Source: a candidate division WOR-3 bacterium
GTDB lineage: Bacteria > Hydrothermota > Tepidihabitantia > Tepidihabitantales > Tepidihabitantaceae
Assembly (NCBI GenBank): GCA_011049385.1
Contig: DSBX01000201.1
Location: forward strand, 1 to 24,102
DNA: 24,102 nucleotides
Direction: 5' to 3'
Each line of letters begins with the position of its first letter. The first letter of the stretch is position 1. Shown piece by piece: positions 2,205-14,894 of the stretch. The notes below the pieces were generated by a model. It did not search any database, was not told where the DNA came from, and worked only from the letters and a program-made list of their open reading frames with translations. The translations under genes and the position numbers were made by a program.

Positions 2205-2509
2205 CGCGCCTGCTGTCCGCGGCCATCGGGCTGGCGATTCGCTGTTACCAGTATACTTTCGGCGCGGTTCTGCCCGGGGCCTGCCGGTTCGAGCCGAGTT
2301 GTTCGAACTATGCGCTCGAGGCGGTCGAGAGGCACGGCCCGGCCCGGGGATGCGTGCTGGTGTTGAGACGGCTTGCGCGCTGTCATCCTTTCGGCGGCTC
2401 CGGGTTTGACCCGGTGCCGGAACGGCGCGGCGGAGCGGACCTGGAGTGCGGAGAGATTGGGAGTGGAATGCGGGCCGTGCAGACGGCAGAGGAGAAGACG
2501 ACCGGATGA
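2201..2509 (+). CDS. yidD: Membrane protein insertion efficiency factor YidD
   Basis: CRFEPSCSNY and RCHPFGGSGFDPVP motifs; synteny. Confidence 0.95.
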   Translation: MTRLLSAAIGLAIRCYQYTFGAVLPGACRFEPSCSNYALEAVERHGPARGCVLVLRRLARCHPFGGSGFDPVPERRGGADLECGEIGSGMRAVQTAEEKTTG

Positions 2510-4125
2510 ACAAAGACACGCTCCGGATGGCCATCGGCTTCGCGGTTATCGTTGGCATCTTGATAATCTGGCAGATTGCCTTCCGTCCGACGCCGCCCGC
2601 GCCCGCGCCGGTCGCGGCCGAGGCGACGCCCGGTGAACCGGCGGCGGAGACCGCGCCCCCGGTCCTGACGCCCACGCCCGTCGAAGCCGAGAGCCCGCCC
2701 GAGCCGTCCGCGCCCGCGGCCTTCGCTTTCGAGCCGGCGCCGGACACGACGGTCACGCTCGAGAACGACGTGCTCCGGCTGACCTTTTCTTCGACCGGCG
2801 GGGCGTTGCGCTCGGCCTGGCTGAAGGAGTACGATGCCGAGCTGGTGCCCGAGGGTGCCCTGCTCTTTTCCGCCGGGCTTGAGACGCCCGATGGCCGCGT
2901 CGGACTGGCCGAGGCGCCCTTCCGGGTCCGGGCCGAGAGGATGAGCGTGACGTTTTCGGTCGGCGATGACTCCTTCGGCCTGGAACGGACGTTCACGCTC
3001 GATACCGGCTACACCGTCCGGCTGGCCGGCGTCGCGCGGGGTGCAACCGGCATCGCCCTCGACTGCCCGGCCGGTATCGCGGTGACCGAGGAGAACGTCA
3101 AGGAGGACCTCACCCACTTCCATTTCTATTCGCGCAGTGCGGGCAAGGTCCGGACCCGGACGGTGCGCAACCTGAAGGAACCGGTTGCCGATACCGTGCC
3201 GGTGGACTGGGTCGGGTTCAAGAACAAGTATTTCTTCGTTGCCGCGTTCGATACCGCAAACGGCTTCGATTCGATGCTGGTGAGCGCGGTGGGCGAGGAC
3301 CGGATTGCGGTCAGCGCGGTCGCTTGGGCCGGGGAGACGGAGGCGACGCTCTACCTCGGGCCCCTGGAGTACAACCGCCTCAGCCGCTTCGGGCTCGGGT
3401 TCGAGGGCGCGGTCAGCCTCGGCTTCGTCAAGCCGGTTGCGCTGGCGATTCTCTGGCTGCTCAACTTCCTTTACCGCATCTTCGGCAACTGGGGCCTGGC
3501 CATCATCGTCTTCGCCATCATCATGAAGGCGCTGTTCTACCCGCTGACGCGGACCCAGACCGGCCAGATGCGGCGGATGCAGCAGCTCCAGCCCAAGCTC
3601 AAGGAGCTGAAGAAGAAGTTCAAGGACGACCCGCAGGCGCTGAACCAGGAGACGATGCAGCTCTACAAGCTGTACAAGATAAACCCGCTGTCGGGCTGTC
3701 TGCCGATGCTGGTCCAGCTCCCGGTTTTCTGGGCGCTCTATTCGGTGTTGCGCAATTTCATCGAACTGCGGGGCGCGGGCTTCGTGCTCTGGCTCAACGA
3801 CCTGTCCCAGCCCGACACTCTTTTCGGGCACCTGCCATTCTTCGGGAACCCGGCCATCGGCCTGCTCCCGATTCTGATGGGGGTCTCCTTCATCGCCCAG
3901 AACATGCTGACCTCGGCCGACAAGAAGAACTGGGCGATGACGATCATCTTCCCCATCTTTATAACTGTAATCTTCCTTAATTTCCCCAGCGGATTGCAGT
4001 TGTACTGGTTCATGTATAATGTGCTCTCGATTGTGGAGAGCCTGATAGGACTCAAGGGAGGAACGCCATGGACGAAGAGAAAAGGCATGAGGGAGGCGGT
4101 TCCGGCCCCGACCGGGAGAGTGTAG
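2506..4125 (+). CDS. yidC: Membrane protein insertase YidC
   Basis: N-terminal TM, periplasmic domain, GNWGLAII, GCLPMLVQLPVFWALY, WLNDLSQPD, FPSGLQLYW; ATGA overlap with yidD stop. Confidence 0.97.
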   Translation: MNKDTLRMAIGFAVIVGILIIWQIAFRPTPPAPAPVAAEATPGEPAAETAPPVLTPTPVEAESPPEPSAPAAFAFEPAPDTTVTLENDVLRLTFSSTGGALRSAWLKEYDAELVPEGALLFSAGLETPDGRVGLAEAPFRVRAERMSVTFSVGDDSFGLERTFTLDTGYTVRLAGVARGATGIALDCPAGIAVTEENVKEDLTHFHFYSRSAGKVRTRTVRNLKEPVADTVPVDWVGFKNKYFFVAAFDTANGFDSMLVSAVGEDRIAVSAVAWAGETEATLYLGPLEYNRLSRFGLGFEGAVSLGFVKPVALAILWLLNFLYRIFGNWGLAIIVFAIIMKALFYPLTRTQTGQMRRMQQLQPKLKELKKKFKDDPQALNQETMQLYKLYKINPLSGCLPMLVQLPVFWALYSVLRNFIELRGAGFVLWLNDLSQPDTLFGHLPFFGNPAIGLLPILMGVSFIAQNMLTSADKKNWAMTIIFPIFITVIFLNFPSGLQLYWFMYNVLSIVESLIGLKGGTPWTKRKGMREAVPAPTGRV

Positions 4126-4655
4126 CACCGACTTCCAGTCCGAGCGATTCGCCGGCGAGGCCGGAGCCCGCACCGGCCGGCCCGCCGTCGGTGCCGAGCG
4201 AGCCCGAGGACGTGATGGTCGCCCGGGTCCTGCGCGATATCCTGCGTCGAATCGGTTTTCACGCCCGCGTTGACATTGAGAAGCGGGAAGACGGCTACCA
4301 CGCCAACATCCGCTCCCGCCAGGCCACCGGTATCCTCATCGGCCACCGCGGCGCTACCCTGCGCGCGCTCCAGTACCTGGTGCGGGCGATTGTCCGGCGA
4401 GCGTACCCGGACGTGCCGATGCTGACCGTGGACGTGGGCGGGTACCGGGTGCGGCGCGAGAACTTTCTCAGGAAGAAGGCGACCGCGGTTGCCCGGATCG
4501 TGCTCGAGACCCGGCGCGAGATGGCTCTCGACCTGCTGACCGAGAAGGAGATGGAACTGGTTCGCGAGGCGCTCAAGGCGGAACCCGGGGTGCGGGTCTA
4601 CGCGCTGGGCGTCGGCACCCGCCGCAATGTCATCGTCGCGCCGACCCAGGAATAG
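4068..4655 (+). CDS. jag: Jag/KhpB/EloR-family RNA-binding protein (KH plus degenerate R3H, no Jag_N)
   Basis: ILIGHRGATLRALQYL KH motif, DVGGYRVRRE; synteny; SD GGGAGG. Confidence 0.88.
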   Translation: MDEEKRHEGGGSGPDRESVAPTSSPSDSPARPEPAPAGPPSVPSEPEDVMVARVLRDILRRIGFHARVDIEKREDGYHANIRSRQATGILIGHRGATLRALQYLVRAIVRRAYPDVPMLTVDVGGYRVRRENFLRKKATAVARIVLETRREMALDLLTEKEMELVREALKAEPGVRVYALGVGTRRNVIVAPTQE

Positions 4656-4659
4656 CAGG

Positions 4660-6009
4660 GTGAAGACCGATACGATCTGCGCGGTCGCGACCCCGCCCGG
4701 GGTCGGCGGCATCGCGGTCGTGAGGGTGTCCGGCCCGCTGACTTTCCCGGTGCTTGACCGGGTCGTGCGCGGCTTTCGCCCTTCGCGTCAGCCCGACCAC
4801 ACGGTTCGGTTCGGCCGGGTCGTCGGCCGGGACGGGGCGGAGCTGGACGAGGTGGTGGTCGCCGCGTTCCGCGCGCCGCGTTCCTACACCGGCGAAGACG
4901 TGGCCGAGGTGTCCTGCCACGGCGGTGACTACATCGCCGGCGAGCTGGTCCGGCTGTTCTGCGGCCAGGGCTGTCGCCCGGCCGGGCCGGGCGAGTTCTC
5001 GCGCCGCGCGGTGCTGAACGGACGGCTCAGCCTGTCGCGGGCCGAAGCGGTACTCGACCTCATCAACGCCCGGACTCCACAGGCCCACGCCGCGGCGCTG
5101 GCCCGTTACCACGGCGGTCTCGCCCACCGGACCAGGGCGATGCTGGCTGAGCTGGACGAATGTCGGGCCCGGCTCGAGTACTACATCGGGTTCGATGAGA
5201 GCGACGCGGTCCGGCCGCGGGATTTCGAGCACCGGGGGCGCCGCCTGCTGGTGCAGGTTGAGCGGCTTTCGGCCGACGCCGAACGAGCCCGGTTCCTGCA
5301 CGAAGGGGCGCGGGTCGCGATCGTCGGCCGTTCGAACGTCGGCAAGTCCACGCTCTTCAACCGGCTGGCCGGTGAGGAGCGGGCGCTGGTCGCGCCCGGC
5401 CCGGGCACGACCCGGGACCGGGTCGAGACCACGGTCGCTTTTGGCGGTGTGCCGGTGCTGTTGAGCGACACCGGGGGCATCCCGGCCCGGACCGGTGGCA
5501 GGCTGGCGCGGGGAGTGGCCGAGAGGACCGCGCAGGCGGTGGACGCGGCCGACCTGGTGATTGCGGTTTTCGACGGGTCCGAGCCCGCGCGGCCGGCCGA
5601 CCGGCGGGTCCTGCGCACCCTCGACCCGACGGCGGGAGCCGGGCGCGAGGTGTTGTGCGTTGTCAATAAGTGCGACCGGAAGGAACGGCTGGGGGCGGGG
5701 TTTCTGTCTCCTTGTCGCCGGCCGGTCATCAGGGTTTCGGCGCGGACCGGGACGAACATCGGGCGCCTCCGCAGTTTCGTCGCCCGGCGGTTCCGCCCCG
5801 GCCGTGAGACCGCGGCCACGAACCGGCGTCACCGGTCCGCGCTCAATGACTGTCGCGCGGCGCTGGCGCGTGCGCTCACGGCACCGGATTCGGCCTGCGC
5901 GCTGGCCGAACTCGAACTGGCGCACGCGGCGCTGGCCGGGCTGGACGCGCCGGCGGACCGGGCGGATGTGCTGGACCGGGTCTTCAACCGCTTCTGCGTC
6001 GGGAAATGA
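4660..6009 (+). CDS. mnmE: tRNA modification GTPase MnmE/TrmE
   Basis: ATPPGVGGIAVVRVSG, PRSYTGED, GRSNVGKS, GTTRD, NKCD, C-terminal FCVGK; start GTG 4660. Confidence 0.95.
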   Translation: MKTDTICAVATPPGVGGIAVVRVSGPLTFPVLDRVVRGFRPSRQPDHTVRFGRVVGRDGAELDEVVVAAFRAPRSYTGEDVAEVSCHGGDYIAGELVRLFCGQGCRPAGPGEFSRRAVLNGRLSLSRAEAVLDLINARTPQAHAAALARYHGGLAHRTRAMLAELDECRARLEYYIGFDESDAVRPRDFEHRGRRLLVQVERLSADAERARFLHEGARVAIVGRSNVGKSTLFNRLAGEERALVAPGPGTTRDRVETTVAFGGVPVLLSDTGGIPARTGGRLARGVAERTAQAVDAADLVIAVFDGSEPARPADRRVLRTLDPTAGAGREVLCVVNKCDRKERLGAGFLSPCRRPVIRVSARTGTNIGRLRSFVARRFRPGRETAATNRRHRSALNDCRAALARALTAPDSACALAELELAHAALAGLDAPADRADVLDRVFNRFCVGK

Positions 6010-6419
6010 TGCAACTGGAACGATTGATTCTGTACGTCCTTCCCGGCCGGGAGGGTGAGGCGGCGGCCGGCTGGGCGCTGGCGCTGGCGCGGCGGCTCGG
6101 AGCCCGGGTGTTCGCGGTTCACGCCGTTGACGACCGGGAGCAGACCGCCGGCGACCAAGAGAGCGAGGAGGCGGCCTGGAAGATACTGTACGAAGTCGAA
6201 GACGATGCGTTCGAAGAGGACGTGAAGCTCTCGTTGGTGCTGGAGCAGGGCGACCCGGTCGAGCGGCTGGTCGAGGTCGTTGCCGGCTATTCGGGCGACC
6301 TGGTCGTCGTGCCGGCCGGCGCCTTTCCACCGGCCGAACTGGTCCGTCGCAGTCCGGCCCCGGTGGTTTTCGTAGGCTCTGCCGCCGCCGAAGCGGCGCG
6401 CGGTTTCAAGGAGGAATGA
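6006..6419 (+). CDS. Universal stress protein (USP) family
   Basis: ALALARRLGARVFAVHAVD, EQGDPVERLVEV, DLVVV, LVRRSPAPVVFV pattern. Confidence 0.8.
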   Translation: MMQLERLILYVLPGREGEAAAGWALALARRLGARVFAVHAVDDREQTAGDQESEEAAWKILYEVEDDAFEEDVKLSLVLEQGDPVERLVEVVAGYSGDLVVVPAGAFPPAELVRRSPAPVVFVGSAAAEAARGFKEE

Positions 6420-6874
6420 TGACGAAAGTATCGGAGCTGCTTGCGCGCGACGCAATCCTGCTCCAGATAGAATCCCGCGACAAGATTGACGTAATCCGCG
6501 AACTGTCCCGGCCGCTGATTGAGAACGGCACGGTAACCGACGAGGAAACCTTCTTCGAAGCGATTCTGCGCCGGGAGAACCTCGAAAGCACCGGCATCGG
6601 GCTGGGCGTGGCGATTCCCCACGCCCGCACCCCGGCGGTCGCGCGGACCGCGCTGGCGTTCGGACGGTCCGAGGCCGGAGTGGATTTCAACAGCCTGGAC
6701 GGCAAGCCCGCGTTCCTGGTTTTCCTCATCGCCGCGCCCGAGGACCGCAAGACCGAGTACATCATGACCCTGGCCCGGGTTTCCCGGCTGATGCGCCGCG
6801 ACGAGGCACGCATCGCGCTGAACCGGGCCCAGACGCCGAACGAGGTCATCGCGGTCGTCCAGCAGTACGAGTGA
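6416..6874 (+). CDS. PTS EIIA component, fructose/mannitol/nitrogen-regulatory (PtsN-like) family
   Basis: RRENLESTGIGLGVAIPHAR with phospho-His; GVDFNSLDGKP. Confidence 0.92.
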   Translation: MMTKVSELLARDAILLQIESRDKIDVIRELSRPLIENGTVTDEETFFEAILRRENLESTGIGLGVAIPHARTPAVARTALAFGRSEAGVDFNSLDGKPAFLVFLIAAPEDRKTEYIMTLARVSRLMRRDEARIALNRAQTPNEVIAVVQQYE

Positions 6875-8658
6875 CGGGAAAGAGGCCGGGGGGACAGGTG
6901 AAGAACCTATACGCGCTCGAGCGGGCGCGCCGGGAAGCCGCGGAACGGGTCCGGGCCCTGGGCCTGCCCGCGGTCGAGGACGACATCCGCGACGTCGAGG
7001 GCGAAGTGGACGCGGACCTTGCCCTGCCGGTGTTCCGGGCGGCGCGCGAACAGGGCCGCAAGCCCTTCGAGCTGGCTGTCGAGCTGGCGGATTCACTCCG
7101 GCAGGGCCCAGGCGGCGAACTGCTCGACCTGTCCCGGACAACCGCGGAGCGCGGCTACCTGAACTTCCGGCTCGACCCGGTGGCGTTCAACCGCGCGGTC
7201 GTGGCCGACTACCGGCGCAACCCGGAGGCCTGGGGCCGTTCCGACGAAGGAGACGGCCGCACCGTCGTGATTGACTACTCCTCGCCCAACGTGGCCAAGC
7301 CCTTTTCGGTCGGGCACCTGCGCTCGACGGTAATCGGGCAGGCTCTGCACAACATTCTTGACTGGTGCGGCTGGCGGCCGGTGGGGGACAATCATCTCGG
7401 CGACTGGGGCACCCAGTTCGGCAAACTGCTCTGCGCCTTCGCGCGCTGGGGCGAAGAAGAAGAACTGGCCGCGGACCCGACCGGCTACCTCTTCCGGCTC
7501 TACGTGCGCTTCCACGAGGAGGCGAAGCAGGATTCGGCGCTGGAGCGCGAGGCCCGCGACTGGTTCCGCCGGCTCGAGATTGGGGACGAGGTCGCCCGCG
7601 AGCGCTGGCAGAGGTTCGTCGCGCTCAGCCGCCGCGAGTTTGACCGCATCTACGAGTTGCTCGGGGTGGGGATAGACTACACGCTGGGCGAGAGCTTCTA
7701 CGAGGACCGGCTCGGGCCGCTGGTCGAGCGGGCGCTGGCGGCCGGAGTGGCCCGGCGCGAGGCCCCGCCCGAGGCCGCGGGCGGCGAGTTCGAGGCCGGC
7801 AAGGAGGTCGTGCTGATTCCGCTGGCGGAGCAGGGCATCGAGACGCCGCTCATTCTCCAGAAGTCGGACGGGGCCAGCCTCTACGCGACCCGCGAATTGG
7901 CTACCGCCGAGTACCGGCTCGAGCGTTGGAAGCCGGCCCGGCTGGTCTACGTCGTCGGCAACGAGCAGGAGCTGTACTTCCGGCAGTTTGGGGCCGCGCT
8001 GAAACTGCTCGGTCACGACGTACCGGTGACGCACGTCAACTTCGGCCTGATTCGCCTGCCCGAGGGACGGCTCTCGACCCGGGCGGGCCGGGTCATCCTG
8101 CTTGAGGACGTCATCCGCGAGGCGGTCGGGCGGGCCCGGACGGTGGTCGCGGACCGGGAGATGACCGAAGCAGACAAGGACGAACTGGCCCGGCTCGTCG
8201 GTATCGGCGCAATCAAGTACGCGGACCTGTCCCAGAGCCGGGGGAAGGAGGTCGTCTTCGACTGGGACCGGATGCTGGCGCTCGACGGTGATTCCGCGCC
8301 CTACCTGCAGTATGCCTGCGTGCGCTGTTCTTCCATCCTGCGCAAGGCCGGGAACCGACCGCGGACGGATTTCGACCCGGCCCTGCTGGCGCAACCCGAG
8401 GAAGCCGCGCTGGTCCGCCGCCTGGCCCGGTTCCCGGACGCGGTCCGGGCCGCGGGCCGGAGCTTCGAGCCGCACCGCATCGCCGGGCACTGCTACCGCA
8501 CCGCGCGGGACTTCTCGGCCTGGTACGCCGCGGTGCCGGTGCTCGGAGCCGAGTCCGGGGAGTTGCGGGCGGCCCGGCTTCTTCTGGTCGAGCTGACCCG
8601 GGCGACAATCGGCACCGGCCTGCGCCTGCTGGGTATCGGGGTGCCGGAACGGATGTAG
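6871..8658 (+). CDS. argS: Arginine--tRNA ligase
   Basis: DYSSPNVAKPFSVGHLRS, NHLGDWGTQFG, KSDGASLYATR, LSTRAG, GDSAPYLQY, GIGVPERM C-terminus. Confidence 0.97.
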   Translation: MTGKRPGGQVKNLYALERARREAAERVRALGLPAVEDDIRDVEGEVDADLALPVFRAAREQGRKPFELAVELADSLRQGPGGELLDLSRTTAERGYLNFRLDPVAFNRAVVADYRRNPEAWGRSDEGDGRTVVIDYSSPNVAKPFSVGHLRSTVIGQALHNILDWCGWRPVGDNHLGDWGTQFGKLLCAFARWGEEEELAADPTGYLFRLYVRFHEEAKQDSALEREARDWFRRLEIGDEVARERWQRFVALSRREFDRIYELLGVGIDYTLGESFYEDRLGPLVERALAAGVARREAPPEAAGGEFEAGKEVVLIPLAEQGIETPLILQKSDGASLYATRELATAEYRLERWKPARLVYVVGNEQELYFRQFGAALKLLGHDVPVTHVNFGLIRLPEGRLSTRAGRVILLEDVIREAVGRARTVVADREMTEADKDELARLVGIGAIKYADLSQSRGKEVVFDWDRMLALDGDSAPYLQYACVRCSSILRKAGNRPRTDFDPALLAQPEEAALVRRLARFPDAVRAAGRSFEPHRIAGHCYRTARDFSAWYAAVPVLGAESGELRAARLLLVELTRATIGTGLRLLGIGVPERM

Positions 8659-8694: not shown

Positions 8695-9930
8695 ATGAAG
8701 ATGACCCGAGTTTACCTGGACCACGCGGCCGCAACGCCGCTCCTGCCCGAGGCGCGGGAGGCGATGGTGCCGTTCCTGGACGGAGAGTTCGGCAACCCGG
8801 CCAGCATTCACGCCCGGGGTGAGAAGCCGCGGGCCGCGGTCAAGGATGCCCGGGAAAAGGTCGCCGGCCTGGTCGGGGCCCGGCCGGAGGGTATCATCTT
8901 CACCGCCTCGGCCTCGGAGAGCAACAACCACGCGCTCAAGGGTCTGGCGGCGGGGAGGGCCGGGCATATCATCGTCTCGGCCATCGAGCACGTCTCGGTG
9001 CTGGAGCCGGCCCGGACTCTCGCCAAGGCGGGTTTCGAACTGACCGAACTGCCGGTTGACGGCGAGGGCCGGGTCCGACCCGAATCGCTGACCGCGGCCA
9101 TCCGGCCCGATACCGTGCTGGTTTCGGTGATGCACGCCAACAACGAAGTCGGCGCGGTGCAGGATATTGCCGAACTGGCCAGGGTTGCGCACGAACGTGA
9201 AGTGCCTTTCCATTCCGACGGGACCGCCGCGGTCGGCCGCCTGCCGGTGGACCTCGGCGCGCTGGGGGTGGACGTCTACTCCTTCGCGGCCCAGTCGGTC
9301 TACGGCCCGAAGGGCGCGGCCGCCCTGTACATCCGGCCCGGGACCCGGATCAGGCCGCTGGTCGAAGGCGGTTTTCAGGAACGCAACCGCCGGGCCGGCA
9401 CCGAGAATGTCGCCGCGATCGCCGGTTTCGGGGCCGCGGCCGAAGTGACCGCCCGCCGCCTCGCCGACTGGTCGGGGGAGATGAGCCGGCTCGCCGACCG
9501 TATCTTCACAGAACTGCCGTCAAGGCTGGACCGGCTGGTGTTCACCGGCCCCGGGACCGGCCGGCTGCCGGGTCACGTCTCGGTCTGCGTCGAATTCGTC
9601 GAGGGTGAGGCGATGCTGTTGTCGCTGGACGATGAGGGAATCGCCGCGGCCTCGGGTTCGTCGTGTACCGCCCGCACACTCAAGGTGTCCCACGTCCTGT
9701 TGGCAATGGGCCTGCCCCACACACTGGCCCAGACTTCGCTCGTGCTGACCCTGGGCCGGGACACGACCGACGCCGGGGTGGACCACCTGCTGGAAAAACT
9801 GCCGCCGATCGTCATCCGGCTCAGGCGGATGTCTCCGCTCTACGCGAAGCTCGAACGGGGCGAGGACCCGTACGCGGCCGCGGCCGGCGCGGCCTGTGAA
9901 GACGACCATTCGACCGTGGAGGAAGGCTAA
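8695..9930 (+). CDS. iscS: IscS/NifS-like protein lacking the PLP Schiff-base Lys (probable non-catalytic cysteine desulfurase homologue)
   Basis: Group I fold motifs YLDHAAATP, FGNPAS, MHANNEVG, YGPKG, RAGTENV, SGSSCT. The canonical SGHK reads AAQS. Confidence 0.9.
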   Translation: MKMTRVYLDHAAATPLLPEAREAMVPFLDGEFGNPASIHARGEKPRAAVKDAREKVAGLVGARPEGIIFTASASESNNHALKGLAAGRAGHIIVSAIEHVSVLEPARTLAKAGFELTELPVDGEGRVRPESLTAAIRPDTVLVSVMHANNEVGAVQDIAELARVAHEREVPFHSDGTAAVGRLPVDLGALGVDVYSFAAQSVYGPKGAAALYIRPGTRIRPLVEGGFQERNRRAGTENVAAIAGFGAAAEVTARRLADWSGEMSRLADRIFTELPSRLDRLVFTGPGTGRLPGHVSVCVEFVEGEAMLLSLDDEGIAAASGSSCTARTLKVSHVLLAMGLPHTLAQTSLVLTLGRDTTDAGVDHLLEKLPPIVIRLRRMSPLYAKLERGEDPYAAAAGAACEDDHSTVEEG

Positions 9931-10304
9931 TGTATTCGGACAAGGTCATGGACCATTTCCGCAACCCGCGGCACGTCGGCGCAGTCGAGAACCCGGACGG
10001 CGTGGGCGAGGTCGGCAACCCGGTTTGCGGCGATATGATGAGTTTCTCGATAAGGGTGCGTGACGGCGTCCTGAAGGATGTCAGGTTCCGAACCTTCGGC
10101 TGCGGCGCCGCGATTGCGGTCTCTTCGATGGTGAGCGAGATGGCCATCGGCAAGACGATAGAGGAAGCGCTGGCGATGAGCAACGCGGACGTCGCCAGGG
10201 AACTCGGCGGCCTGCCGCCCAACAAACTGCACTGCTCGAACTTGGGTGCCGACGCGCTGCACGCGGCCATCCGGAACTACCTCGAGAAACAGAAGGAGGC
10301 GTAG
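9930..10304 (+). CDS. iscU: Fe-S cluster scaffold IscU/NifU N-terminal type
   Basis: YSDKVMDHFRNPR, CGD, FGCGAAIA, LPPNKLHC; TAATG coupling to iscS. Confidence 0.97.
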   Translation: MYSDKVMDHFRNPRHVGAVENPDGVGEVGNPVCGDMMSFSIRVRDGVLKDVRFRTFGCGAAIAVSSMVSEMAIGKTIEEALAMSNADVARELGGLPPNKLHCSNLGADALHAAIRNYLEKQKEA

Positions 10305-10306
10305 TG

Positions 10307-10483
10307 ATGGAACGTGAGTGCGGTTGTCCCTACTGCGACGGTATGACCGACACCGGGGTCTGTGCGCCGTGCGGGGTCAAGCTTGTCCTTTGCCCGGACT
10401 GCGCCACCCCCCAGCCGCGCGAGGCGACGGTCTGCGCCGCCTGCGGCGCGGCCCTTTCCCAGCAAGACCAGGACAAGGAGTGA
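10307..10483 (+). CDS. 58-aa Cys-rich double zinc-ribbon-like microprotein (absent from the ORF track)
   Basis: MERECGCPYCDGMTDTGVCAPCGVKLVLCPDCATPQPREATVCAACGAALSQQDQDKE; SD AAGGAGG; fills the iscU-grx gap with 2-nt spacers on both sides. Confidence 0.85.
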   Translation: MERECGCPYCDGMTDTGVCAPCGVKLVLCPDCATPQPREATVCAACGAALSQQDQDKE

Positions 10484-10485
10484 CA

Positions 10486-10764
10486 ATGCCGACAGCAAAA
10501 GAGCCCGGTGCGAACAAGAAGCACAAGGTCAGGCTCTACGGCCTTTCGACCTGCGGCTGGTGCCGCAAGACCAAGGAACTGCTCGACTCCCAGCAGGTCG
10601 AGTACGAGTATGTCTACGTTGACCAGTGTGAGGGCGACGAGCGGGCGGAGTTGACCGCCGCGGTCCGTGCGCTCAACCCGCGTGGTTCCTTCCCGACCGT
10701 CGAGATTGACGGCGAGGTGGTGGTCGGCTACGACGACGACCGGATCCTCGAGTTGCTGGGCTGA
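10486..10764 (+). CDS. Glutaredoxin/NrdH-like redoxin (CGWC), 92 aa
   Basis: LYGLSTCGWCRKTKELL, SFPTVEI, VVGYD; SD AAGGAG before ATG 10486. Confidence 0.92.
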   Translation: MPTAKEPGANKKHKVRLYGLSTCGWCRKTKELLDSQQVEYEYVYVDQCEGDERAELTAAVRALNPRGSFPTVEIDGEVVVGYDDDRILELLG

Positions 10765-11282
10765 TGGCCGGCGAGAAGCACCCGCCCGAGGTGCTCAAGC
10801 TCTACGAACGCCTGAAGCGCGTGGCGGTTGAGGGCGGGTACATGCTCAACCCGGACGAGGAGTTCACGCTCCGGCTAGTCCAGGGGTTGCAGGATAACAT
10901 CGGCCGTTTCGGTTACCCGGCCTGTCCCTGCCGTCTGGCCTACGGTGAGAAATCGAAGGATGTGGACCTCATCTGCCCTTGTTACTACCGCGACGCGGAC
11001 ATTGAGGAGTACGGTACCTGCTACTGCACGCTCTACGTCAACGAAGACTGGGTGAGCGGCAGGTTCCCGCACAAGAGCATCCCGGACCGGCGACCGGCCG
11101 ACTTCGTCCTGAACGGCTACGCCGAACCGGAGCCGGTGCGGCGGGCCGAAAGCGGCGGGCTTTCGCCTTCCCTGCCGGTCTGGCGATGCAAGGTCTGCGG
11201 CTACCTTGCCGCCCGCGATGAGCCGCCCGGCAAGTGCCCGATCTGCAAGGTGGGCAAGGAACGGTTCGAGAGGTTTCTCTAG
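10764..11282 (+). CDS. Ferredoxin:thioredoxin reductase catalytic-subunit homologue fused to a C-terminal rubredoxin-like domain (FDR-type)
   Basis: CPC...CPC...CYC motifs, then WRCKVCGY...CPIC. Confidence 0.92.
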   Translation: MAGEKHPPEVLKLYERLKRVAVEGGYMLNPDEEFTLRLVQGLQDNIGRFGYPACPCRLAYGEKSKDVDLICPCYYRDADIEEYGTCYCTLYVNEDWVSGRFPHKSIPDRRPADFVLNGYAEPEPVRRAESGGLSPSLPVWRCKVCGYLAARDEPPGKCPICKVGKERFERFL

Positions 11283-11284
11283 CG

Positions 11285-11590
11285 ATGGCGGGTCGGGTTA
11301 TCGCCGAACTGACCATCGTGCCGCTCGGCACCGGCTCGACCAGCCTCAGCCGCTGGGTCCGGATTGCCGAGAAGGTCATCACCGAAAGCGGGCTGGAGCA
11401 CACCCTTACACCGATGGGAACCTGCGTCCAGGGCGAGCTTGAAGACATCTTCGCGGTTGTCAAGCGGGCCCACGAGGCGCTGGCCGCGGCCGGTGCAGGC
11501 AGGATTTCCACCCATATCAAGCTCGACGACCGCCTGGACAAGGACCGCGTCATGCAGGACAAGATTGACGCGGTGCTGAAGCAGGACTGA
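11285..11590 (+). CDS. MTH1187-family thiamine-binding protein
   Basis: IAELTIVPLGTGSTSLS, LTPMGT, RISTHIKLDDRLDK pattern; start moved to ATG 11285. Confidence 0.88.
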   Translation: MAGRVIAELTIVPLGTGSTSLSRWVRIAEKVITESGLEHTLTPMGTCVQGELEDIFAVVKRAHEALAAAGAGRISTHIKLDDRLDKDRVMQDKIDAVLKQD

Positions 11591-11595
11591 AGCCG

Positions 11596-12192
11596 ATGTC
11601 CGGTCGGGCAATGGCCCGACTGCTCGCCTGTCTGCTCGTCGGCCTGGCCTGCCTGCCGGTCCGGAGCCGTTCGACCGCGCCCGCGGTCAACTCCGAACTG
11701 GTGGTCCGGAAGTTCGCCGAAGGCTTCGGCAGCGGTACCGGGCGGTTGACCCGTCTGTTCCTGAATGATGCTGAGGTTCGCCTGGCCGGGTTGGGTGTGG
11801 GGTTCAGGGGACGCCGCGAAATCGAGCGCCTGCTGGACTACGCCCGGGCCGCAGAGGCCCGGCTCGAGCTGTCCGCGCTGGAGCGGCGGGGCGACACCGT
11901 GTTCTGCCGGTTGGCCGAGGACAACGCCTGGCTCCGGGCCCTGGGCGCGGACAGCCTGCGCTACTCGGCCCGGTTCCTGTTCCAGGGCGGCCGGGTTGCA
12001 GAGGCCGAAATCCGACTCCTGCCCGGCTCCCGGGCCGCGCTCGGCCGGAGCGGGATGGCTTTCGCGCTCTGGGTACGTGACCACGCACCGGGGGCCATCG
12101 AGCGCATCCTGCCCGGTGGACGGCCCGAATTCTCCCGGGACAGCGTCCGCCAGCTGTTGGAGCTCATTCGGCGCTGGCAGACCGAGCGTTGA
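11596..12192 (+). CDS. Exported hypothetical protein, NTF2/SnoaL-like fold suspected
   Basis: Signal-like N-terminus; LFLNDAEV...FRGRREIERLL...GDTVFC...FQGGRVAE pattern. Confidence 0.6.
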   Translation: MSGRAMARLLACLLVGLACLPVRSRSTAPAVNSELVVRKFAEGFGSGTGRLTRLFLNDAEVRLAGLGVGFRGRREIERLLDYARAAEARLELSALERRGDTVFCRLAEDNAWLRALGADSLRYSARFLFQGGRVAEAEIRLLPGSRAALGRSGMAFALWVRDHAPGAIERILPGGRPEFSRDSVRQLLELIRRWQTER

Positions 12193-12230: not shown

Positions 12231-12414
12231 TGAGCGTGCGGAAGGCAAGACTCAAAGCCGGGCCCGGACCGCACTGACCAAAGGTCTCACGGTAAGGGTC
12301 CGAAGCGGCAGTACGGACTGCCGATGGCGGTACGCGCTATTCAGGGACTCTGGGATTATGGAGGTGTTCGGTCCGCTGAGACGGAACGAAGCTGCACCAC
12401 CTCCTTCCCGGTTC
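12231..12414 (+). ncRNA. Unassigned structured RNA candidate (6S-sized sRNA or cis-regulatory element)
   Basis: Non-coding gap with several stems (12306-12323; 12360-12366/12398-12404; 12265-12271/12369-12375; 12240-12245/12403-12408) ending at an intrinsic terminator. Family not recognised. Confidence 0.45.
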
Positions 12415-12444
12415 AGGGCGGGGTAACACCCCGCCCTTTTCTTT
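12415..12444 (+). terminator. Rho-independent terminator
   Basis: AGGGCGGGG-TAACA-CCCCGCCCT followed by TTTCTTT. Confidence 0.88.
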
Positions 12445-12456
12445 GTCCGGGTTCGG

Positions 12457-12484
12457 TTGACAAGCGTTGCGGGCGGCGTACGAT
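12457..12484 (+). promoter_or_regulatory. Promoter TTGACA-N16-TACGAT for the DegV-DAK2 gene
   Basis: Perfect -35, plausible -10; AGAGGA SD before ATG 12507/12510. Confidence 0.65.
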
Positions 12485-12506
12485 GGCGACAAGAGGATGT
12501 ACCGCA

Positions 12507-14894
12507 ATGATGGCAGCGCCGCATAGCGAAACCGGGCGGCCGGTCCGGATCGTAGTGGACGGCACCACCAATACCGACCCGGCCACGCGCCGGCGGTTGG
12601 GCATTGCGATCATCCCGATCCACATTTCAGGTCTGCCCGGGGAGGTGGCGTCCCGCCTTGCGGCCGGCGGGCACGAAGCGCTCTATGACCACCTCGACCG
12701 CCCGCACCGGCCCGAGGAGCAATGCGGCACCCGGGCCGGCAGTGTCTGGGAGGCGCGGCAGGTCTTTGAGGACCTCATCCGCTGGGAAGACTGCGATATC
12801 ATCTGTCTCGTTGCCTGCGGTCGGTTGTCGGCAGTTTACGATAACGCTTCCCGGGCCGCGCGCGAGCTGTCCGGCCGGTATGAGAATCGAATCGTCGTGC
12901 TCGGCGAGCAGGCCTTTCTTGCGCTGGAACTGCTGGGCGAGGCTGCGGCAGCATACGCGGCGGCCGGGCACGGGTTCGAGGAGGTGCTGGCGTTCATCGA
13001 GGACAAGCAGGACCGGGCGTTCATGACCGGCAGTATCGTTGACCTCGCCCGCCTGCGCCGCTCGGGTCGGGTGGCGATACCCCGGACACTTACCCTTGTC
13101 GCCCGGCCCTTTCTTCGGCTGTTCGGGTTGGTGCCAACCTTCATCCTCGAAGAGGGGCGGCCGCGCACGACTGCGCTCATCCGCAAGCGCCGGCTTGCTT
13201 GCCACGCGCTCGATACCACGTCCGAACGGGTCGGGTTTCACGAGCCGGTCATTGCCCGGGTCGCCTACAGCGGTAGTGGCGTGCGCGCTGAAGCCGAGAA
13301 GCTGCGGGATGCTGTGGTGGAGAGCCCGGAACTCAGGTTGGCCGAACCGGTGGCAATCGAGCGGGTGAGCCCGGTCGTCGGGGTGCACGCCGGGTCCAGC
13401 CTGGTTGCTTTCGCGGCGCTTGGGCTGGGCTACGATTTGCTTTCGACGCCGGTGCTGGTCCGAATCCTGCAGGCGGCGCAGGCGGAACTGCAGAACTTCC
13501 GGCGGATGCTCAACGCCATCAACGTTTTCCCGGTGCGCGATGGCGATACCGGCTCGAACCTGCTCTCGCCGCTGACGGGCGTTGACACGGAGATTGCCGA
13601 AGACCTGCCTTTTCCGGAAGCGCTGGACCGCGTCGCGTCACTGGTTGCCCGGCGGGGCGGCGGCTACTCGGGCGGGGCACTGGCCGCCTACCTGCTCGGG
13701 GTGGCGGCCCACGTCCGGGCTCACGAGTCCGGGCCGGAACTAGGTCTTGAAACCCTGGTCGGTGCGCTGGCCCGGGGCACGGACCGCGCCTACGAGTACT
13801 TCGGCGAAGACGCGAAGGAAGGGACGATTCTAAGCGTGATGCGGGCCTGCGACCGCGCCGCGGCCGAGGCGTTCAGGACCAGGCCTACCCTGCGCCACGT
13901 GCTGGGCCATGCCTGGCTGGCCGCGACCGACGAGCTTCTGAGCCCGGCGGTCCAGCCGGTTGAGATTCTGCGCCGCGAGCACCTTGCCCACGCGGGCGGG
14001 GTCGGTTTCGCGTTGCTGTTCTGGGCCGCGCTTGACACGCTCGGGCTGAGCCGGGATAGCCGTTTGCGCGAGCGACGACGGCTGGTCCTGTACGAGGTCC
14101 GGCGGCATGCGGAACTCGGCGGCAGGCTCGTCTACCGCCGCCAACCCGCGGGACTGCGCGGCTACTGCGTCGAAGCCAGCGTGCGCGGAGACGTGGCCCG
14201 TGAGCTGAGAGCCGAGTTCGGGACCCTCGATAATCGCTTGGCGGAGCCGAAGCTGACCTTCAATTTCGCCGACGGGGTGACTCACTTCCACTTCCACGTC
14301 TCGCCCGGTCTCGAAGCCGAAGTCTTGCGGATAGCGGCCCGCCACGGGTTTGCCGAACAGCCCAGGCCGCCGACCCGACTCGACAAGCGCCGGCGCGAAA
14401 TCGTCGGCTTCCGGCTCCTCGGTATCCTGAAGCGCATCGCCGGCCACATCGTGTCCTTCTCTGTCAACTGGGTCGCCTATGCCCTGCTCTTCCCGATAAT
14501 GCGTTACCGTGCTTACCGGCGCCTGAAGGCGCTGGAGACGAAAATCGAACACCTCGCGCTCAGCCGGCTTGGCCTCGCGGCCCTGGCCGACACGACCCCC
14601 CGGGCCTGCCTGCTGTTGGATGCGCAGGGAAACGTGACTTTCGCCAACGCGTCGGCCGGGCGTCCGGTCGCCACGGATGCGGGTGTGATCGAGGATTACC
14701 TGCCCCGGGAAGAGGCCCGGGTTCTGCGATTCCGACTGTCCGAAGCGGATGGTCGGCAGGCGGCATTCAGCTTCAACGTCGGGGACCGGGTGATGACGGT
14801 CCAGCCGCTCGGTGACAACCATCGGGCCGGCGGCTTCCTGGTCCTGATCGACCGCGCGGGCACGGCGTCGGTCCGCGCCCGGGTCGATGACTGA
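12507..14894 (+). CDS. DegV(FakB)-DAK2(FakA N+M)-TM-PAS fusion protein (~795 aa)
   Basis: DegV-like RIVVDGTT, RLSAVY, LRRSGRV, VGVHAG. DAK2 LNAINVFPVRDGDTGSNL, EGTILSV. FakA-M GYCVE...HFHFH. One hydrophobic helix, then PAS-like LLLDAQGNVTFANASA. Confidence 0.85.
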   Translation: MMAAPHSETGRPVRIVVDGTTNTDPATRRRLGIAIIPIHISGLPGEVASRLAAGGHEALYDHLDRPHRPEEQCGTRAGSVWEARQVFEDLIRWEDCDIICLVACGRLSAVYDNASRAARELSGRYENRIVVLGEQAFLALELLGEAAAAYAAAGHGFEEVLAFIEDKQDRAFMTGSIVDLARLRRSGRVAIPRTLTLVARPFLRLFGLVPTFILEEGRPRTTALIRKRRLACHALDTTSERVGFHEPVIARVAYSGSGVRAEAEKLRDAVVESPELRLAEPVAIERVSPVVGVHAGSSLVAFAALGLGYDLLSTPVLVRILQAAQAELQNFRRMLNAINVFPVRDGDTGSNLLSPLTGVDTEIAEDLPFPEALDRVASLVARRGGGYSGGALAAYLLGVAAHVRAHESGPELGLETLVGALARGTDRAYEYFGEDAKEGTILSVMRACDRAAAEAFRTRPTLRHVLGHAWLAATDELLSPAVQPVEILRREHLAHAGGVGFALLFWAALDTLGLSRDSRLRERRRLVLYEVRRHAELGGRLVYRRQPAGLRGYCVEASVRGDVARELRAEFGTLDNRLAEPKLTFNFADGVTHFHFHVSPGLEAEVLRIAARHGFAEQPRPPTRLDKRRREIVGFRLLGILKRIAGHIVSFSVNWVAYALLFPIMRYRAYRRLKALETKIEHLALSRLGLAALADTTPRACLLLDAQGNVTFANASAGRPVATDAGVIEDYLPREEARVLRFRLSEADGRQAAFSFNVGDRVMTVQPLGDNHRAGGFLVLIDRAGTASVRARVDD

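Follow-up and report, generated by a model that had tools for sequence, protein, structure and literature searches.

A lysine-less IscS, IscU and a glutaredoxin-ferredoxin:disulfide reductase pair in a candidate iron-sulfur assembly operon of a WOR-3 bacterium

The IscS protein of Archaeoglobus fulgidus, which carries an aspartate (Asp199) in place of the lysine that binds pyridoxal phosphate (PLP), is inactive as a cysteine desulfurase, yet it forms with IscU a [2Fe-2S] complex in which a cysteine of IscS is a ligand (PMC8918507, PMC7585200). In this complex IscS is regarded as a part of the scaffold, to which it contributes a Cys ligand, sulfide is the presumed sulfur source, and the same lysine-less condition is found in IscS1 of Methanosarcina acetivorans (PMC8918507, PMC7585200). 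How an inactive IscS-IscU pair builds iron-sulfur (Fe-S) clusters at all is a question raised in a review (PMC8918507), and according to a 2026 review the electron donors of the minimal systems MIS and SMS are unknown (PMC13066941). Ferredoxin:disulfide reductase (FDR) reduces redoxins and feeds the class III ribonucleotide reductase through a NrdH-like protein (PMC6262447). Here we describe a locus of an uncultured, anaerobic bacterium of candidate division WOR-3 where relatives of these proteins are encoded together. The window, i.e., the whole stretch of DNA analysed, comprises 24,102 nucleotides (contig DSBX01000201.1, assembly GCA_011049385.1), and its positions 8695 to 11590 hold six plus-strand genes for a lysine-less IscS/NifS homologue (hereafter IscS*), an IscU-type scaffold, a Cys-rich microprotein, a glutaredoxin-like protein (Grx), an FDR and an MTH1187-family protein. 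Read most cautiously, this is the operon for housekeeping Fe-S assembly in its family, in which IscS* and IscU form a scaffold of the A. fulgidus type with IscU-bound accessories. That Grx and FDR directly supply reducing power to this minimal, MIS-like scaffold is a reading that we favour tentatively and that stays somewhat short of probable, with electron delivery suggested by the gene context.

The first gene (8695-9930) encodes IscS*, of 411 residues (Pfam Aminotran_5, 218 bits), and the second (9930-10304) the IscU-type scaffold, of 124 residues (Pfam NifU_N, 161 bits; TIGR03419, 187.4 bits for a cut-off of 187.9). They are followed by the gene of the 58-residue microprotein, which starts at 10307, or with a GTG at 10304, ends at 10483, and was assigned to the double-zinc-ribbon (DZR) proteins from its Cys pattern and a sub-threshold Pfam match. 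The last three genes encode Grx, of 92 residues with a CGWC active site (10486-10764; Pfam Glutaredoxin, 50.3 bits versus a cut-off of 22.9), FDR, of 172 residues (10764-11282; Pfam FeThRed_B, 71.5 bits, and RUBY_RBDX, 53.6 bits), and the MTH1187-family (Thiamine_BP) protein, of 101 residues (11285-11590). The initial annotation described these genes, which are co-directional, as joined by 1-nt overlaps or 2-nt gaps, and every gene and junction was found where it had been placed when the sequence was read again. A TAATG at 9928-9932 joins iscS* and iscU, as read directly from the sequence; the TAG of iscU shares base 10304 with the GTG of the microprotein gene, whose ATG is at 10307; the TGA of the latter (10481-10483) is separated by 2 nt from the ATG of Grx at 10486; the Grx and FDR genes are joined by a TGATG at 10762-10766, and the TAG of FDR (11280-11282) lies 2 nt before the ATG of the MTH1187 gene at 11285. 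Shine-Dalgarno-like motifs precede the genes of IscU (GGAGGA), the microprotein (AAGGAGG) and Grx (AAGGAG). Internal terminators or promoters had been named as features that could separate the genes; a consensus scan detected no plus-strand terminator-like site from 8695 to 12186, hence none in the six genes, and the sole internal promoter-like site is a weak match (9/12) inside iscU. The reported absence of hscAB, iscA, fdx and sufBCD also holds for the window, as judged from the list of open reading frames (ORFs) and Pfam.

IscS* has the class-V aminotransferase fold and matches chain 4EB5 of the A. fulgidus IscS with an E value of 4e-100, 4HVK being a further solved relative; all NCBIfam desulfurase models stay below their cut-offs. 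When it was aligned with the canonical NifS encoded elsewhere in the same genome and with the solved desulfurase 9WEP, its SGHK motif was found to be AAQS, as the initial annotation of a Lys-less protein had it: Lys is replaced by Ser and His205 by Gln. In the same alignments the substrate Arg is replaced by Val, and the Cys324 of the mobile loop is retained, within the motif SGSSC. Because the PLP lysine is lost, IscS* should be unable to act as a cysteine desulfurase. The residue found at the lysine site of IscU-adjacent IscS proteins varies among lineages: it is Ser in the family of the window (f1), Asp in family f14 of the same phylum and in Ignavibacteria, Thr in Anaerolineae and genome G179, and Gln in genome G108; among the loci with a readable site, Lys is kept only in a Myxococcales locus with a three-domain NifU (L085). 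A lysine-less state confined to those IscS proteins linked to Grx-FDR was considered and rejected, given that Grx-FDR is missing from the 8-kb regions read in G108 and G179; the lysine-less state and the linkage are associated but separable, with no obligate tie.

The cluster-site residues of IscU (C33, D35, C58, H101 and C102) are all present and invariant in the IscU alignment, and among the matches listed the protein is 70-84% identical across the order of the window. The microprotein has four CxxC pairs (C7/C10, C19/C22, C29/C32 and C43/C46) and one extra Cys, with the spacing of an interleaved ribbon. A word-based protein search returned only the microprotein itself; its relatives were collected from the loci by tblastn and ORF extraction, and their alignment shows seven invariant and two near-invariant Cys. 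It scores 20.6 bits against Pfam DZR (PF12773), below the cut-off of 27.3, and its nearest clusters in the Atlas are DZR proteins (score 0.90). In 17 of the 30 relatives read, the DZR continues the reading frame of IscU as a C-terminal fusion; such fusions were found in the family of the window (genera g2, g8 and g9, G209 and G213) and in six of the eight genomes read from family f2 of the same order, and in the remaining relatives the DZR is a separate gene at the same position. Because of this fusion, which is strong comparative evidence, DZR is expected to work together with IscU, and the microprotein appears to be a detachable C-terminal domain of IscU. The predicted complex of both proteins scored 0.02, the partner's own fold being uncertain, a value that carries no weight in either direction. 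In locus L013 (4508-4966) the IscU frame enters the first half of DZR and then stops, which resembles a frameshift within an IscU-DZR fusion, be it genuine or due to the assembly. A different extension, of approx. 130 residues, is present at the C-terminus of IscU in three f14 loci (L106:3805-4560, L107:3554-4309 and L108:3296-4054); it has no Pfam match, and by eye it is like the NAD(P)H-binding subdomain of thioredoxin reductase.

The assignment of the last gene of the operon to the MTH1187 family is well above the curated cut-offs (PF01910, 107.3 versus 24.9; TIGR00106, 105.7 versus 54.7). In the f2 loci read, the gene order is IscU(-DZR)-MTH1187, and IscS, Grx and FDR are not adjacent; within the window's own family, genome G223 (L099; genus g15) has the order argS-IscS*-IscU-DZR-MTH1187 and no Grx-FDR in the locus. 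Because this unit occurs without Grx-FDR in f2 and in G223, IscU-DZR-MTH1187 represents the older core. The Grx-FDR pair seems to have been inserted into the middle of this core in an ancestor of the family and then retained, and conserved adjacency across two families marks MTH1187 as a probable IscU-linked accessory. The microprotein and MTH1187 are accordingly grouped with IscU and not with Grx-FDR, since both stay beside IscU where Grx-FDR is absent. A congener of G223, G222, is the sole genome bearing SufB/D among 44 genomes of the family, and the two may constitute a natural experiment in the replacement of the reductase arm.

FDR shows the catalytic motifs C54-P-C56, C71-P-C73 and C86-Y-C88, the last one with a Tyr that replaces the His of FTR, and a C-terminal rubredoxin centre formed by two CxxC motifs (C142, C145, C158 and C161). 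The ten Cys are invariant in an alignment of 22 relatives, some of which are named "ferredoxin:glutaredoxin reductase" by NCBI, and the protein aligns over its full length with the FDR structure of M. acetivorans (4TPU) with an E value of 2.5e-52. No NCBIfam equivalog model reaches its cut-off with Grx. The partnership with FDR suggests that Grx is reduced enzymatically rather than by glutathione; given their conserved adjacency, Grx is presumed to be the FDR substrate. A profile search with FDR yielded 80 loci in species-representative genomes from many bacterial and archaeal phyla, and since a Grx gene lies immediately 5' of FDR in 79 of them, Grx-FDR can be considered an autonomous, ancient two-gene module. 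When the neighbour families at these loci were clustered from crude ORF calls, IscS was the commonest family besides the pair itself (13/80 loci), followed by rubrerythrin/ferritin-like proteins, pyridine-nucleotide disulfide oxidoreductases, response regulators, IscU, P-type ATPases, nitroreductases, flavodiiron proteins, peroxiredoxins, rubredoxins and desulfoferrodoxins.

The conservation of the operon was evaluated by comparative genomics of metagenome-assembled genomes, in the 272 species genomes of the window's phylum, by comparing by hand the FDR and IscU coordinates, the latter from the best 150 matches. In the family of the window, which includes 15 genera, IscU lies 700-1000 bp 5' of FDR and on its strand in all the 37 FDR-bearing genomes, unless the contig ends there; G198 looked like a break in this pattern and was discarded as such, given that the DZR gene is the last one before the end of its contig. 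The full order argS-IscS*-IscU-DZR-Grx-FDR-MTH1187 is present in genera g1, g5, g6, g8, g12 and g13 (nine loci read), and the FDRs of the operon form one clade in the FDR tree. A linkage restricted to this single genome would have spoken against a functional module; it is instead kept across the 15 genera and recurs in other lineages. In G193, a single-contig genome of genus g7, only a 28-residue FDR remnant follows Grx (L098:3872-3955), and FDR has apparently been degraded or lost. Beyond the family, IscS/IscU and Grx-FDR are tightly linked in G110 of family f12, they are 4.7-6.7 kb apart in 5 of 11 genomes of f13 (among the matches listed), and 3.2-5.4 kb apart in at least 17 genomes of f14. 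In locus L077 (G131, f14) they are separated by a P-type ATPase that has an HMA domain. An FDR match in f14 (G136:C18:10320-10799) and several weaker FTRc-only matches in the same family contain single in-frame TGA, TAA or TAG stops; the cases with TGA may be selenocysteine forms.

Outside the phylum, IscS/IscU was found less than 8 kb from Grx-FDR in Anaerolineae (L029, L037, L050 and L086), Ignavibacteria (L071) and Myxococcales (L085). The linked FDRs outside the window's family are scattered on the FDR tree, where well-supported branches force at least three further origins of the linkage. A rough estimate gives about 0.6 of 77 loci outside the family expected to have IscU within 8 kb by chance, versus seven observed; it assumes one to two IscU genes per 3-Mb genome (<1% at random) and non-independent relatives enter it, so that it is valid as an order of magnitude only. 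The clusters of Anaerolineae and Ignavibacteria also carry TusA and DsrE-like persulfide carriers, and in Anaerolineae IscU is fused to a DUF59 domain. The operon of the window appears to be an independently assembled version, in another phylum, of the one present in Chloroflexi.

With respect to other assembly systems, 43 lack the SufB/D core family among the 44 genomes of the family, 29 of which are at least 90% complete, whereas 14 of 14 controls have it; because of this, the operon is the only recognisable scaffold system of the family. The SufB/D core and the A-type carrier family (Fe-S_biosyn) were not found in the genome of the window, which is 83% complete. In 42 of 43 relatives from the family a canonical, Lys-bearing NifS is encoded away from the operon, with 62-80% identity among genomes, and the "desulfurase-independent" assembly initially proposed is consequently too strong a term. 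In the genome of the window this NifS (contig C22, L001:1489-2652) has no IscU, ThiI or MnmA partner nearby; it lies between an lspA-like gene and an opposite-strand ORF that by eye looks like archease. Also encoded in the genome are a TrxB-like protein (341 bits, slightly below the cut-off) and three thioredoxins, and because of them Grx-FDR is not its only disulfide reductase; a second gene encodes an FTRc-only protein. On contig C178 (494-3574) a plus-strand cluster comprises a divergent IscU-like gene, 41% identical to the IscU of the window, two MinD/ParA-like ATPases with 4Fe-4S motifs, a small Cys-rich protein and a Cys-rich 198-residue ORF; this cluster may be a second Fe-S related system.

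A mechanism can be proposed from these components. By analogy with A. fulgidus, IscS* most likely pairs with IscU as the structural half of the scaffold, and its loop Cys would be a cluster ligand. Sulfur could come as sulfide or as persulfide from the separate canonical NifS, and in the other phyla as persulfide delivered by TusA/DsrE. Electrons of reduced ferredoxin would enter FDR by way of the rubredoxin centre and the [4Fe-4S]/disulfide site, and FDR would then reduce the CGWC disulfide of Grx. The reduction of persulfides and oxidised cysteines is achieved by dithiothreitol (DTT) in vitro and by ferredoxin in the ISC system; Grx may act as a physiological DTT that reduces persulfide (S0) or disulfides on the Cys of IscS* and IscU, so that sulfide and free thiolate ligands would be ready for cluster building. 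DZR would participate as the split-off C-terminal domain of IscU, and MTH1187 as a further IscU-associated accessory.

The direct coupling of Grx-FDR to the scaffold is favoured by the insertion and retention of the pair in an IscU operon, by the repeated independent linkage, by the separate thioredoxin system, and by the operon having no other reductant gene. A set of observations goes in the opposite direction. Among the matches listed, families f2, f3 and f4, which belong to the same order, hold IscU and Grx-FDR at separate loci, and G223 lost the pair from the operon and kept the remainder. The linkage in f13 and f14 is loose (3-7 kb), more like that of a stress island, and lysine-less IscS-IscU pairs exist with no Grx-FDR nearby, as in the 8-kb regions of G108 and G179. 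Grx is not specialised in sequence, linked and unlinked copies all having C[GIV]WC, and around 70 of the 80 Grx-FDR loci are away from IscSU, beside genes for rubrerythrin, flavodiiron protein, desulfoferrodoxin, peroxiredoxin, rubredoxin or nitroreductase.

Several of these observations fit the strongest of the alternatives, namely that Grx-FDR is a general ferredoxin-dependent protein-disulfide reductase, the thioredoxin-like system of an anaerobe, and that its link with the scaffold genes reflects co-expression or regulation, for instance after oxidative stress, with no electron transfer to IscS* or IscU. This is a serious possibility, although we consider it the less probable side of the question. 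The two-gene module (79/80 loci) is spread over many phyla and both domains, its commonest other neighbours are oxidative-stress genes, and the operon is part of a long housekeeping string, yidC-jag-mnmE-ptsN-argS. In Methanosarcina the substrates of FDR are reportedly a thioredoxin, methanoredoxin and an NrdH-like protein. However, a general reductase does not readily account for a pair that has been kept between IscU-DZR and MTH1187 in 15 genera, with stop and start codons that overlap, that in three or more other lineages of FDR again accompanies lysine-less IscS/IscU and TusA/DsrE, and that has IscS as its top non-self neighbour family; a separate TrxB/thioredoxin system is also encoded in the genome of the window.

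A second alternative is that the operon is a dedicated module for repair or rescue after exposure to oxygen, routine assembly being carried out elsewhere. TM0486, of the MTH1187 family, is tied to oxidative conditions, the Grx-FDR neighbourhoods of other organisms are rich in oxygen-defence genes, and a second, divergent IscU-like gene is available on C178. Nevertheless, such a role, which the initial annotation had put forward, is less likely than a housekeeping one since 43 of the 44 family genomes lack SufB/D; the A-type carrier was not found in the genome of the window, IscU has all the canonical ligands with the identity across the order given above for the matches listed, the operon lies among essential housekeeping genes, and nothing else recognisable is left for routine assembly, with the possible exception of the C178 cluster. 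We regard this alternative as unlikely.

Finally, the operon might traffic sulfur to thio-cofactors (thiamine or tRNA thiolation), with IscS* as a persulfide relay and MTH1187 as a binder of thiamine precursors, as the Pfam name Thiamine_BP, the upstream mnmE (tRNA modification) and the TusA and DsrE of the Chloroflexi and Ignavibacteria versions could indicate, but this is very improbable, given that IscU keeps all the cluster-ligand residues, no ThiI, ThiS, MnmA or TusBCDE gene is present in the operon, IscS* cannot itself make persulfide, and mnmE is part of the classical yidC-jag-mnmE string.

Direct supply of reductant by Grx-FDR thus remains the preferred reading. A broader proposal includes it: that ferredoxin, FDR and Grx are the reductant supply of a MIS-type assembly on a dead IscS, which in this family, together with the IscU-attached DZR and MTH1187, would form a complete SUF-independent, chaperone-free housekeeping machinery of undescribed composition. 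We hold this broader proposal to be possible, and rather doubtful in its entirety.

The co-directional unit extends beyond 8695-11590 at both ends. Upstream, argS (arginyl-tRNA synthetase; 6871-8658, plus strand; Pfam tRNA-synt_1d and DALR_1) ends 36 nt before the start of IscS*, and both are probably co-transcribed; argS is directly 5' of IscS* in L011, L091, L092, L094, L097, L098 and L099, and is syntenic in most members of the family. It is the last gene of a plus-strand housekeeping string (2446-8658) of overlapping or abutting genes that comprises yidC, a jag/KhpB-like gene, mnmE, a USP-like ORF (6009-6419), a ptsN-like EIIA gene and argS; the order yidC-jag-mnmE is typical of the vicinity of the replication origin in many bacteria. 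Downstream, 5 nt after the MTH1187 gene, a plus-strand ORF of 198 residues (11596-12192) has a signal-peptide-like N-terminus and no match in Pfam or NCBIfam. A homologue was found only in a genome of the same genus (G190, 67% identity), and this ORF was rejected as a member of the module and considered a tail that the operon has in this genus only. A strong terminator-like hairpin (10 pairs, 8 of them GC) is located 3' of it at 12415-12437, and a promoter-like site with 10/12 matches at 12457-12484; because both fall within the long ORF 12324-14894, the true start of this DegV/DAK2 gene is probably 3' of them.

The operon bears on how minimal, ancestral-type Fe-S assembly is supplied with sulfur and electrons, and offers a candidate chain, ferredoxin-FDR-Grx, for the electron donor of MIS. 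It also points to two unstudied IscU accessories, DZR by gene fusion and MTH1187 by conserved adjacency, and all the parts are small soluble proteins and hence suited to reconstitution. Should the link be only one of co-regulation, the loci would still serve as a map: lysine-less IscS, with Ser, Thr, Gln or Asp at the lysine site, is common among anaerobic bacteria as well as in archaea. The statement that the combined system is undescribed stands in part: in the literature searched, no paper brings IscU and IscS into connection with an FTR-type reductase, whereas every part is of a known kind, i.e., the A. fulgidus-type inactive IscS, the FDR/Grx pair, the double zinc ribbon and MTH1187. What is new here is that the family has no other recognisable scaffold system, that a separate NifS is conserved in it, that DZR can be fused to IscU, and that MTH1187 is linked to IscU.

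Among the known systems, the IscS-IscU pair of A. fulgidus (4EB5, 4EB7, 4HVK and 4R5F) and IscS1 of M. acetivorans resemble the locus in the adjacent iscS and iscU genes that lack hscBA, fdx and iscA; the inactive IscS of the A. fulgidus type also shares the replaced PLP lysine and the conserved loop Cys. The differences are that the replacement is Ser here and Asp in A. fulgidus, that His205 and the substrate Arg are also lost here, that the system of the window is bacterial and forms one operon with DZR, Grx, FDR and MTH1187, and that the family has no scaffold system besides this one, an SMS of the SufBC type being absent. MIS (MisS-MisU; Garcia et al. 2022, as reviewed in PMC13066941) has in common with the locus a two-gene core of IscS- and IscU-like proteins in an anaerobic lineage, and the locus of the window is likewise devoid of chaperones, A-type carrier and dedicated ferredoxin. 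In contrast, MisS is presented in that review as a cysteine desulfurase (PMC13066941), whereas IscS* lacks the Schiff-base lysine and its operon includes four extra conserved genes.

The FDR of Methanosarcina (MA1659, 4TPU) has the same CPC/CPC/CYC FTR domain with a C-terminal rubredoxin, and a Grx-like gene directly upstream; however, the pair of M. barkeri reportedly serves the class III ribonucleotide reductase (PMC6262447), and that of the window is embedded in an Fe-S assembly operon. The closest arrangement is found in the Anaerolineae operons mentioned above, where a lysine-less NifS, IscU and Grx-FDR are encoded on one strand and the same reductant logic may apply. There, Thr stands at the lysine site and the substrate Arg is retained, IscU has the DUF59 (FeS_assembly_P) domain in place of DZR, genes for TusA, DsrE and ferritin-like proteins are present and MTH1187 is not, and FDR belongs to another clade. 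The canonical ISC system (iscRSUA-hscBA-fdx) shares with the operon the adjacent proteins of IscS and IscU fold, and in it persulfide reduction is done by ferredoxin; the window is distinguished by a catalytically dead IscS encoded without IscR, IscA, HscB, HscA and Fdx, and by a proposed reductant that would be a thiol relay from ferredoxin through FDR to Grx and not a [2Fe-2S] ferredoxin.

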